Positions 6,284 through 36,764 of a DNA stretch of 64,000 nt are shown here, piece after piece (within the stretch, counting starts at the first letter, position 1; every line of letters starts with the position of its first letter). The notes beneath the pieces were generated by a model. It searched no databases. It was not told where the DNA came from and was given only the letters and a program-made list of their open reading frames with translations. This DNA is from a phage. A program made the position numbers and the translations under genes. The stretch lies in NCBI GenBank assembly GCA_021683455.1, contig GCA_021683455.1_3051.1; one strand, given 5' to 3'.

Positions 6284-6764
6284 TAAAGAAGTTTCTATTC
6301 CTAAAATGGGTCTTAAACATTATAACATTTTAAAAGATGTTAAAGGTCCTGATGAAAATTTAAAACTTCTTATTGATTCTATTTGTCCGAATTTATCACC
6401 GGCAGAAGTTGATTTCGTTTCCATTCATTTGCTAGAATTTAATGGAAAGATTAAATCTCGTAAAGAAATAGATGGTTATACTTATGATATTAATGACGTT
6501 TATGTATGCCAAAGATTGGAATTTCAATACCAAGGAAATACATTTTATTTTAGACCTCCTGGAAAATTTGAACAATTTTTAACTGTAAGCGATATGTTAT
6601 CCAAATGCTTGCTTAAGGTCAATGATGAAGTTAAAGAAATTAATTTTCTTGAGATGCCAGCATTTGTTTTAAAATGGGCAAATGATATTTCTACAACTTT
6701 AGCAATTCCTGGCCCTAATGGTCCAATAACCGGAATTGGCAATATTATTGGATTATTTGAATGA
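6231..6764 (+). CDS. 28: Baseplate hub distal subunit gp28
   Basis: Track ORF 6189-6764; internal ATG at 6231 gives 177 aa (T4 gp28 length) and a short overlap with gp27. Confidence 0.8.
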
Positions 6765-19944: not shown

Positions 19945-19974
19945 AACTTTATGCAATCTTTGGAAAATAAAAAA

Positions 19975-19992
19975 GGACTCCCGAAGGAGTCC
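19975..19992. terminator. Terminator hairpin GGACTCC-CGAA-GGAGTCC
   Basis: 7-bp stem, CGAA loop, flanked by A-run and T-run. Confidence 0.55.
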
Positions 19993-19997
19993 TCAAC

Positions 19998-20174
19998 TTA
20001 TGCTTTCTGCTTACCAAAACGAGAAGCATCATCTCGAAGAACCGCACGTGCTCGGCGCATGATCTTCTCAACAGTTTGATTGATACGAGAGTTCGACCCA
20101 CGCTTGTAGCCAGCGCGTTTAGAATCACCAACTTTCTTTTCAACTGCTTTCTTTGCTTTAGCTTGTTTTGCCAT
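19998..20174 (-). CDS. Small basic protein (58 aa; 30.9 position)
   Basis: Track ORF extends to 20216, but the internal ATG at 20174 (MAKQAKAKK..) has an SD-like AAGAG upstream. Confidence 0.5.
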   Translation of the reverse strand: MAKQAKAKKAVEKKVGDSKRAGYKRGSNSRINQTVEKIMRRARAVLRDDASRFGKQKA

Positions 20175-20419
20175 TATAAATTCTCTTTTAAATGAAAATG
20201 CAGGACTTATTGGCATTGCCTGCGCAAGCCCTCAAGGGGAACATAGGTTTTTGGATATTTAACGACCAGGATAACCATAAACCCGTCATCATTCACATTC
20301 AAGAGGTACACCGTAAAACTGCCGGGGTCTTAAAACTATAATGATTCGCAAATCATTAATCAGACAGTTCGACGGCTCCTCGATTTTAGCTCACACTAAG
20401 GCAGTGAATCTCCAATAAA

Positions 20420-20668
20420 TTACTTCAATGTTACCACAAAGTGACGAACTGCTTTTCGTGCAGCAGAAGCCAGAGGCTTGGCATATTTAAGTTCATCTTT
20501 TTCCTGAAGCTCAGCAGCTAATGCAGTTTGAGCAGGATTCAGATGTTTGAAATAACGCAGGATTTCAAGAGCTTCGGCTTCAACATCAATAGATGCGCCA
20601 TAGTTTTCGTGACCATTATTCCATGCGTTTCGTTGCAGTTCAAGAGCGTGTTGTAATTGTTTAATCAT
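20420..20668 (-). CDS. rIII: rIII lysis-inhibition accessory protein
   Basis: 82-aa ORF MIKQLQHALELQRNAWNNGHENYG..; T4 rIII. Confidence 0.85.
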   Translation of the reverse strand: MIKQLQHALELQRNAWNNGHENYGASIDVEAEALEILRYFKHLNPAQTALAAELQEKDELKYAKPLASAARKAVRHFVVTLK

Positions 20669-20816
20669 TTAAAAAATTCTCGTTAGAGATTAAAACTCGG
20701 TAGTCACGTTCTTCTGAATTTCATCTTCTTTCGACAGATCTCTCAGTTGTAGACTACCACGTAGAATTGTTCGGGTAACTTATTATTCCGACACCCAATT
20801 CATATTATTATTTATA

Positions 20817-21152
20817 TCACTTATAAAGACATGGAATAGCTTTATAGTGGCAAGTGACGAATTTTTGTTTAATTTCTTTTGGCTGCTTAAGACCCAGAGC
20901 TACAAAAGGATGCGGAACATTTCGAATTTGACCAACTGGAAGAGAAGTCAAATCACCAACTTCGCAGAAACCTTCAGGAACATCAGGACCGACAGAGTGA
21001 ACTACACACAGTTCAGGAACTTCACCTTGAACACGTTTACCGATAATAAGTCCTGATTCTGTAACTTCTTCATCACCGGCTTGTGCAGGTTCAGAAACTA
21101 AAATAACATATTCACCGACAGCACGAATTGGCAGCTGTTGTACTTCAGACAT
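20817..21152 (-). CDS. 31: Co-chaperonin gp31 (GroES analogue)
   Basis: 111-aa [33 protein letters not shown]..; T4 gp31. Confidence 0.9.
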
Positions 21153-31704: not shown

Positions 31705-31921
31705 ATTGTTCTTCCGTTAAAACAGTAATATCGTAGTAACAGTCAGAAGAAGTTTTAACTGTGGAAATTTTATTATCAAAATACTCACGAGTCATTTTAT
31801 GGGTATAATATTTTTTGCCATAAATGATAATAGGCTGATTTGGTCCTGGAACTTCTAACTCACTTGGATTAGGAAGTGTAAAAAGAACTACACCAGAAGT
31901 ATCCTTAAATCGTAAAATCAT
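31658..31921 (-). CDS. Hypothetical protein (87 aa; nrdA.2 position)
   Basis: Collinear ORF. Confidence 0.5.
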
Positions 31922-36665: not shown

Positions 36666-36697
36666 TTTTATTTCCTTTTTAATTTAATTAACAGTTG

Positions 36698-36730
36698 GTG
36701 CTATGACGATGTATGACCTCATAGCTGGTC
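36698..36730 (-). promoter_or_regulatory. Gene 32 translational-operator pseudoknot
   Basis: Minus-strand GACCAGCUAUGAGGUCAUACAUCGUCAUAGCAC: stems GACC/GGUC and AGCUAUGA/UCAUAGCU interleave; followed by an unstructured A/U-rich tract up to the gene 32 ATG. Confidence 0.65.
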
Positions 36731-36748
36731 AGTGAGATAATTATAATC

Positions 36749-36756
36749 TATTTATA
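36749..36756 (-). promoter_or_regulatory. Late promoter TATAAATA upstream of gene 32
   Basis: Exact minus-strand TATAAATA in the 59-32 intergenic region. Confidence 0.5.
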
Positions 36757-36764
36757 ATAAGCAA

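Follow-up and report, generated by a model that had tools for sequence, protein, structure and literature searches.

Between genes rIII and 30.9 of a T4-type phage lies a gap of 245 bp (20175–20419) that runs from the rIII stop codon to the 30.9 ATG. It was analyzed within a 64,000-nucleotide stretch of the phage genome (contig GCA_021683455.1_3051.1; hereafter, the window), and it is 100% identical to the corresponding sequence of Yersinia phage phiD1 and nearly identical to that of T4. An earlier note had described the gap as unusually long, relatively GC-rich and without a convincing open reading frame (ORF), and had suggested that it could hold a small structured RNA, a regulatory site or a degraded gene. 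The gap itself is real: in the T4 reference (NC_000866), which places 30.9 at 130364–130540 and rIII at 130785–131033, the same stretch, there 244 bp long, is also unannotated. All genes of the locus lie on the minus strand, in the order gene 31, rIII, gap, 30.9, terminator and an early-type promoter for 30.8.

20817–21152, minus: gene 31, upstream of rIII
20420–20668, minus: rIII, 82 amino acids, the upstream cistron, whose stop codon borders the gap (ORF list and T4 annotation)
20175–20419: the gap
19998–20174, minus: gene 30.9, 58 amino acids, very basic, the downstream cistron, with its start codon at 20172–20174
19973–19994, minus: intrinsic terminator at which the rIII/30.9 transcription unit ends; G+C-rich stem of 9 bp, UUCG loop, U-run

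The product of rIII is 100% identical to T4 RIII (tblastn). The length and composition of the gap are as the note described them. On a crude map assembled greedily from ORFs of at least 50 amino acids, on which spurious ORFs cover part of the gap, the gap at its annotated length is among the longest uncovered stretches; only two exceed 245 bp (322 and 261 bp), and the 322-bp stretch is mostly occupied by a 100-amino-acid ORF that the greedy map omits. Apart from the gap, the stretches that this map leaves without ORFs of at least 50 amino acids include 6284–6544 (261 bp) and 31705–31917 (213 bp). The G+C content of the gap, 0.40, is above that of the window (0.355) and above the mean of the other uncovered stretches of at least 40 nt (0.32). 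A promoter scan called no sigma-70-type promoter inside the gap, which is therefore presumably transcribed by read-through. Transcription presumably starts at the promoters upstream of 31 and rIII (PMC9409239) and ends at the terminator after 30.9. Across this terminator and the 3' end of 30.9 (19959–20042, minus), a sub-threshold Rfam match to Atu_C8, a Rhizobiales sRNA, was found at 31 bits against a gathering score of 50; it recurs in relatives and is most likely driven by the terminator hairpin.

The gap has persisted well beyond what chance would leave. A blastn search with the 245 bp returned 771 phage records, once per genome and in a mosaic pattern. A further 47 loci were fetched from IMG/VR by way of rIII, and the rIII–30.9 spacer was extracted wherever both genes were present; a spacer of 120–416 nt occurs in all 55 usable loci that carry both (47 unique). 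Its variants include T6, with 44 nt more at 20292/20293, ACG-C40 and G3F7, with about 155 nt more, PP01, with 194 nt in all, and JLBYU22, with 121 nt. The T4 copy is a reduced version of the RNA, having lost a hairpin of 44–52 nt that T6, VR25, QL01 and PNJ-9 keep. Conservation of the spacer exceeds that of the flanking coding sequence: the 103 nt proximal to 30.9 are 89%, 92%, 97% and 82% identical between the window and VR25, QL01, PNJ-9 and CF-SP2, respectively, which stand for four other genera, and in the same four comparisons rIII is 71–84% identical overall (55–67% at third codon positions) and 30.9 is 65–91% identical.

A degraded protein gene, the last option of the earlier note, or a neutral recombination spacer in a plastic region would suit the mosaic makeup of the locus, the origin of the T4 copy as a deletion derivative and the ORFs of 37–64 amino acids that annotators have called in the longer variants. 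However, the longest ORF per spacer variant ranges from 0 to 72 amino acids on either strand, these ORFs lie in differing frames and strands, and none is shared. The spacer of locus L037 contains no ORF of at least 20 amino acids on either strand, and 1-nt indels separate close relatives inside the most conserved part of the spacer. A conserved small ORF, in frame and with a start codon and a good Shine–Dalgarno (SD) sequence, was looked for among the relatives; none was found, and frameshifting indels were found instead. Given also conservation above that of the neighboring coding sequence and helices that covary (see below), a decayed gene or neutral spacer is highly improbable.

The earlier note had also dismissed the ORF at 19998–20216 (72 amino acids) as an unsupported N-terminal extension of 30.9, and this holds: T4, PP01, VR25 and QL01 annotate the short form, and indels of 1–3 nt between genera occur just upstream of the 30.9 ATG. 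The extended ORF, which overlaps the RNA modules described below, is labeled '1,4-alpha-glucan (glycogen) branching enzyme, GH-13-type' in LR597657, MZ502379, KY290975 and other phage records, and UniProt holds an entry for a 97-amino-acid 'Uncharacterized 11.1 kDa protein in Gp30-rIII intergenic region'. The branching-enzyme and the 11.1-kDa entries both look like annotation artefacts.

On the strand of rIII and 30.9, a rule-based alignment with pair counts delineates an H-type pseudoknot, termed module M2.

20241–20287, minus: module M2, H-type pseudoknot
20282–20287, minus: M2 S1a, GACGGG
20273–20281, minus: M2 S2a, UUUAUGGUU
20264–20270, minus: M2 S1b, CCUGGUC
20250–20263, minus: M2 loop L3, GUUAAAUAUCCAAA, conserved and A-rich
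20241–20249, minus: M2 S2b, AACCUAUGU

The two stems change sequence from phage to phage and keep their pairing. Stem 1 occurs as GAC(G)AGG/CCUGUC and elsewhere as GAC(G)UGG/CCAGUC, GUC(G)UGG/CCAGAC, GUC(G)UAG/CUAGAC, GGCGAGG/CCUGCC or GUGG/CCAC, and stem 2 is found outside the T4-likes as UUAGUAGUU/AACUACUAA, UUGUGAG/CUCACAA, UUGUUGGUU/AACCAACGG or GAUGG/CCAUC. In an alignment of 33 distinct sequences, built with fixed positional rules and without optimization of pairs, 81% of the M2 cells are paired, compared with 31–54% when the 3' partners are slid by 1–3 columns. Changes on both sides are seen in 8 of the 15 pairs, and G-U cells outnumber A-C cells by 33 to 8. The covariation score is 0.35 against 0.16 for shuffled alignments, and none of 500 shuffles scored as high, although this control overstates significance because the sequences are phylogenetically related. 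In searches with covariance models, as the earlier note had proposed, a model built from M2 gives a single match in the window, at 51 bits, and Rfam 15 yields nothing credible. Between the 3' end of M2 (S2b, 20241) and the 30.9 ATG (20174) lie 66 nt. This distance varies widely: against the roughly 66 nt of T4, Jiaodavirus has about 290 nt, with other modules in between.

The gap as a whole very probably encodes a chain of RNA modules that fold separately, on the strand of rIII and 30.9. Those other than M2 are as follows.

20391–20407, minus: module Ma, small hairpin UCAC-UGCCUUAGU-GUGA (RNAalifold)
20303–20381, minus: segment A, long irregular hairpin domain (RNAalifold consensus)
20290–20300, minus: junction at which relatives carry extra modules; a deletion in T4 and the window
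20225–20242, minus: module M1, mini-hairpin GUU-CCC-CUUGA-GGG-CUUG, 3–4 bp, with conserved flanks
20200–20223, minus: module M3, hairpin GCAGG-CAAUGCCAAUAAGU-CCUGC, its 14-nt loop conserved, then AUUUUCAUUU
20181–20198, minus: weak hairpin UUUUC/GAGAA, pairing a pyrimidine tract with the SD region of 30.9

Ma and segment A together comprise 29 pairs in the RNAalifold consensus of 15 T4-like sequences, 25 of them in segment A; six of the 29 are changed on both sides, five within segment A. Ma contributes four pairs, one of which goes from A-U to G-C in 5 of 12 T4-like sequences, and the hairpin is found at other positions in Jiaoda-, Kanagawa- and further genera. The helices of segment A are GAGG/CCUC, GCCGU/ACGGU and GAACUGUC/GGCAGUUU; its apical hairpin, UAAUGAUU-UGCG-AAUCAUUA, lies at 20339–20359. 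Compensatory changes include CCGU/ACGG to CCAU/AUGG and AACUGUC/GACAGUU to AAUUGUC/GACAAUU, and the apical stem changes from AAUGAUU/AAUCAUU to AUCGAUU/AAUCGGU. At the junction, T6 and T4_ev240 have 44 nt that form a hairpin of the CAGA..UCUG type, and ACG-C40 and G3F7 have about 155 nt that form a further module, M4.

Closer to 30.9, the GGGCUUG of M1 is invariant in an alignment of 11 genomes and its stem varies, for instance to CCUC/GAGG; in some genera M1 is placed 5' of M2 rather than 3'. No covariation indicating pairing of M1 with the M2 loop was seen by eye. The M3 stem has a G-U variant, GCGGG/CCUGC, and in Salmonella phage CF-SP2 and in L032 (Gelderlandvirus) it becomes the longer GAACUGG/CCAGUUC, with A-U changed to U-A. 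M3 is replaced in Jiaoda-, Karam- and Moon-type phages by a stem, GGGAGC...GCUCCC, that holds a long insert. An intrinsic terminator or attenuator would have a G+C-rich stem, a loop of 3–8 nt and then a U-run; M3 precedes AUUUUCAUUU, but with a loop of 14 nt and a stem of 5 bp it is not called by the terminator scan. A terminal hairpin that is tighter, with CUUUUAUUA after it, is present in several other genera. Both G+C-rich strings quoted in the earlier note are present and fall within modules: GCCTGCGCAAGCCCTCAAGGGGAAC is the plus-strand reading of the 5' half of the M3 hairpin and of M1, and CTGCCGGGGTC is the 3' strand of a segment A helix.

The end of the leader was folded as the last 42 nt plus the ATG of each of 30 distinct leader ends. 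In most of these, the purine-rich SD region is partly paired to upstream bases, commonly to a pyrimidine tract (UUCUCC/GGAAGA, CUCC/GGAAG, UUUUC/GAGAA).

M4 is absent from T4 and the window and present in many T4-like genera (847–1029 in L006, 853–1032 in L005 and the spacers of L013–L016); several records label it a hypothetical protein. It spans about 140 nt and has a well-supported fold of several helices, with 42 pairs in the RNAalifold consensus, 20 of them with changes on both sides, together with a GNRA hairpin and a candidate pseudoknot between a loop and downstream sequence (GGCG..CGCC / GGCC..GGCC). Segment A looks like a reduced relative of this 140-nt module.

The alifold energies are lower on the sense strand than on the antisense strand, both for segment A (-26.0 vs. 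-18.8 kcal/mol) and for M4 (-35.4 vs. -27.8 kcal/mol). Together with the excess of G-U over A-C cells, this favors an RNA of the rIII/30.9 strand. The gap could instead hold a signal at the level of DNA, such as a promoter, a replication origin or a protein-binding site, and T4 does have a promoter-like TTGAAT-N17-TATGGT that spans the deletion junction. This string exists only in the T4 deletion variant, however; its halves are 44–155 nt further apart in T6 and ACG-C40, and the promoter scan does not call it. Neither the late promoter TATAAATA nor a MotA box was seen in the gap, and G-U pairs and alifold energies point to sense-strand RNA.

The gap thus very probably (at roughly 0.85–0.9) encodes, on the strand of rIII and 30.9, a non-coding RNA that is structured and conserved and has the H-type pseudoknot as its invariant core. 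Of the options raised in the earlier note, the small structured RNA is supported by sense-strand helices that covary and by conservation above that of neighboring third codon positions; the alignment with related phages suggested there shows a spacer that is kept and conserved, with compensatory changes in its helices.

Besides the relatedness of the aligned sequences, several observations weigh against this conclusion or against a regulatory use of the RNA. Stem 2 of M2 is weaker or imperfect in the T4-likes, consisting of GGUU/AACC plus AU/AU across a bulge, and the M2 alignment follows our own positional rules, with no independent aligner. Part of the high identity of the spacer could come from recent recombination instead of selection. 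Single-sequence folding of the entire gap shows no significant stability (z = -1.6; other z, -1.2); these scores are uninformative, and the structural signal comes from comparative analysis only. The hairpins at the SD region are weak, with energies of only -0.7 to -6.3 kcal/mol. Lastly, the variable distance from M2 to the start of 30.9 and the variable order of the modules would be unusual for an operator or for the expression platform of a riboswitch.

The RNA element co-occurs strictly with gene 30.9, which supports the regulatory site proposed in the earlier note, here combined with the structured RNA. M2 was found in 55 of 55 usable loci carrying 30.9. Ten rIII loci lack an intact 30.9, and nine of them give no M2 match: eight (L050, L053–L055, L059, L062–L064) match neither 30.9 nor M2, and L052 has only a spurious weak match to 30.9. 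At L050, the sequence of which was read, there is no spacer and the next ORF begins 5 nt past rIII. L049 retains M1, M2, Ma and the terminal hairpin intact along with the first codons of 30.9. There, the first codons or so of 30.9 run in frame into a RyR-domain protein (1750–2533; PF02026, PHROG 18865). The protein gp30.9 is a member of PHROG 1427, a family without an assigned function, and is found in T4-like phages only, its gene being present in roughly 1000 phage records. Neither Pfam nor the PDB gives a match to it, and it is not homologous to ribosomal proteins. In its AlphaFold2 model, a low-confidence basic N-terminus is accompanied by one helix at residues 29–53, a layout that, if the model is right, would be like that of many RNA-binding peptides.

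The order of the modules is shuffled among genera.

T4-likes: Ma, segment A, (hairpin), M2, M1, M3
Karam/Moon phages: M4, M2, M1, long hairpin
Jiaoda phages: hairpin, M2, Ma, M4, M1, long hairpin
L035/L037: M1, M2, hairpin

Modules that hold on to their folds although their order changes and they lie nearer to or farther from the 30.9 start, like position-independent beads on a string, would be expected of a stable RNA acting in trans, either alone or as a ribonucleoprotein (RNP) with gp30.9. Here, modules cut from the rIII–30.9 transcript would target host or phage machinery (the ribosome or S1, RNases, a defense system), and 30.9 would be a partner rather than the regulated target. The conserved loops GUUAAAUAU (M2) and CAAUAAG suggest specific recognition, the co-occurrence is with a small basic protein, and the multi-helix fold of M4 with its GNRA hairpin exceeds the needs of a simple leader. 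Conversely, no promoter or terminator of the RNA's own was called, and no description of a stable T4 RNA encoded at the rIII–30.9 locus turned up in literature searches; the only small T4 RNAs known in 2010 were RNAC and RNAD (PMC3014915). In addition, many modules are dispensable in nature, as JLBYU22 retains only 121 nt. An RNA acting in trans is an unlikely explanation.

The long hairpin of the Jiaoda and Karam/Moon orders has a relative in the window, in the 148-bp gap between 31 and rIII.

20809–20816, minus: TATAAATA, the T4 late-promoter consensus, directly after the gene 31 stop codon at the start of the 31/rIII gap
20699–20758, minus: long three-tier hairpin, 60 nt

The position of TATAAATA fits the reported late transcription of rIII. 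The three-tier hairpin reads GGUAGUC-UACAA-CUGA-GAG-AUCU-GUCGAAAGA-AGAU-GAAAU-UCAG-AAGAACGU-GACUACC. In Jiaoda, Karam and Moon phages it stands directly before 30.9, and all three of its helices are compensatorily changed (GGGAGC/GCUCCC, CCGA/UCGG, AACU/AGUU); a third variant is found in Mosigvirus PNJ-9. Processing or protein binding may take place at this hairpin, which resembles the intercistronic RNase III sites of phage T7. Its recurrence at both places with helices kept by compensation would suit a set of processing or stability elements of the 31-rIII-30.9 operon, such as RNase III, RNase E or RegB sites, 3' protection of the rIII message or 5' stabilizers of the 30.9 message, which would neither bind a ligand nor act as an operator. 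Consistent with this, the gap contains two GGAG motifs, the target of RegB (PMC9409239), and the neighboring 30.7 transcript is a known RegB substrate. Generic stabilizers, however, require neither near-invariant loops across genera nor a covarying pseudoknot, and the strict link with 30.9, not with rIII, argues against a role as the 3' untranslated region of rIII. Processing elements of this kind are as unlikely an explanation as an RNA acting in trans.

The element does not fall into a known RNA family. No Rfam 15 family matches inside the gap in a 1.7-kb scan, and the relatives likewise give nothing credible. When 141 nt were scanned at E <= 10, three weak, chance-level Rfam matches overlapped the gap. 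The best of them, DUF2815 RNA over M1–M3, scored 14.5 bits against a gathering score of 41.2 and was not reproduced in CF-SP2, which resembles the DUF2815 consensus more closely than the gap does; the match is treated as chance. ARAGORN found no tRNA or tmRNA in L001 and L003–L006, including the 400-nt variants. In ACG-C40, the 155-nt insert contains a string similar to GGTTCGA that had raised the idea of a T-arm and thus of a tRNA-like element; ARAGORN gave nothing there, and the string is the GNRA hairpin of M4. Strings in M4 that recall RNase P RNA (GUGCAACAGA, CGAUGGCC, GCGGUAAG) are not collinear with that RNA (M1 RNA, distinct from module M1), and no Rfam match accompanies them. The string AAYGGTGTGCAACAGAT was searched in 596 Gb of genomes and gave 81 matches where about 140 were expected by chance; none of 18 matching loci checked had a known RNA at that position. 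Literature searches found no published RNA at the rIII–30.9 locus.

The layout of M2 echoes that of the self-cleaving pistol ribozyme (RF02679). The M2 loop pairs downstream with covariation, as in the P1-pseudoknot topology, a small hairpin follows, and the GUUAAAU after the hairpin-loop pseudoknot is reminiscent of pistols; a likeness to the pistol env25 sequence is presumed. The architecture of pistols has been described, and they are common near phage genes (PMC4604425). Against this, the Rfam Pistol model (RF02679) gives no match in the 141-nt scan even at E <= 10, no conserved P2 was found, and GC or AC stands where the 2-nt GU junction, the cleavage site, would be. The candidate P3 (M1) is not always beside M2: it lies 5' of it in L034, L035, L037, L043 and L060, and none was found in L045 and L061. 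A pistol-type ribozyme or the DNA-level signal considered above is very improbable.

The closest known parallel lies in the same phage. The operator of T4 gene 32 is an mRNA pseudoknot 67 nt upstream of the start codon, which nucleates the binding of gp32 (PMC3014915). The gene 32 leader is present in the window at 36666–36764 (minus) and contains the pseudoknot known for autoregulation, CUGACCAGCUAUGAGGUCAUACAUCGUCAUAGC, as well as a UUAAAUUAAA tract. Both are H-type pseudoknots with almost no loop 1 that lie in 5' leaders, about 66–67 nt before the start codon, and each is followed by an A/U-rich ribosome-binding region. The two sequences are unrelated, however, and the M2 covariance model gives no match to the gene 32 leader at E <= 1. 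Loop 3 of M2 has 13–14 nt and is conserved and A-rich, whereas that of gene 32 has about 7 nt, and the hairpins M1 and M3 precede the 30.9 ribosome-binding site where gene 32 has unstructured, A+U-rich UUAAA repeats. Furthermore, the spacing of about 66 nt is found only in the T4-likes and is far larger in Jiaoda- and Kanagawa-type phages.

Two other kinds of leader can be compared with the element. The riboswitch aptamers preQ1-I, SAM-II and fluoride are small H-type pseudoknots. Like M2, they are compact, precede a gene and have a 3' loop rich in A that could lie in the groove of stem 1, and the 30.9 leader may likewise hold a hairpin that sequesters the SD. The stems of M2 are longer, though, there is no Rfam match at E <= 10, 30.9 suggests no ligand, and in many genera the expression platform is not adjacent. 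The Escherichia coli S15 rpsO pseudoknot operator (PMC3014915) resembles the element in that a structured leader with a pseudoknot precedes the gene of a small, very basic protein, but the Rfam S15 leader model has no match in the gap, and gp30.9 is not known to bind RNA and has no ribosomal-protein homology.

The function that we consider most likely is that of a cis-acting leader of 30.9, to which we assign about even odds. The gap would be transcribed as an intercistronic leader of 30.9 on the strand it shares with rIII, and M2, with its loop GUUAAAUAUCCAAA, would be an operator or aptamer for a trans-acting factor, for which the gene 32 pseudoknot operator provides a precedent in the same phage (PMC3014915). 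The most economical candidate for that factor is gp30.9 itself, which would then exert autogenous control as gp32 does on its own pseudoknot. Occupancy of M2 would set the translation and/or the stability of the 30.9 message through the hairpins that follow 3' of M2: the mini-hairpin, the hairpin with the conserved loop and the weak hairpin that may occlude the SD. The action in cis, the bound partner and the direction of regulation are all inferred.

A second conserved leader containing a pseudoknot would thereby be added to T4, the best-studied virulent phage, in a stretch left unannotated in its reference genome. According to a 2010 review, the pseudoknot of gene 32 might be the only viral pseudoknot involved in translational autoregulation (PMC3014915). 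The leader described here is present in about 800 sequenced relatives, its helices covary, and it offers a handle on 30.9, a gene that is conserved but has no assigned function. Directly testable RNAs are now at hand in M2, segment A, M4 and the long 31/rIII hairpin. For databases, it means that many records annotate an RNA region wrongly as protein, either as "hypothetical protein" or as "1,4-alpha-glucan branching enzyme".

As of a 2010 review, no riboswitch or trans-acting regulatory RNA had been characterized in T4 (PMC3014915). There is a small chance that the element belongs to an unrecognized class of phage RNA, either a riboswitch-like sensor, which would be the first in T4, or an RNP of gp30.9 acting in trans. 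For such an RNP, a possible target would be the host translation or RNA-decay machinery, the product of the neighboring rIII being one that binds ribosomal protein S1. If the element is a new class of RNA, the shuffled modules would reflect the exchange of functional RNA domains between phage genera.

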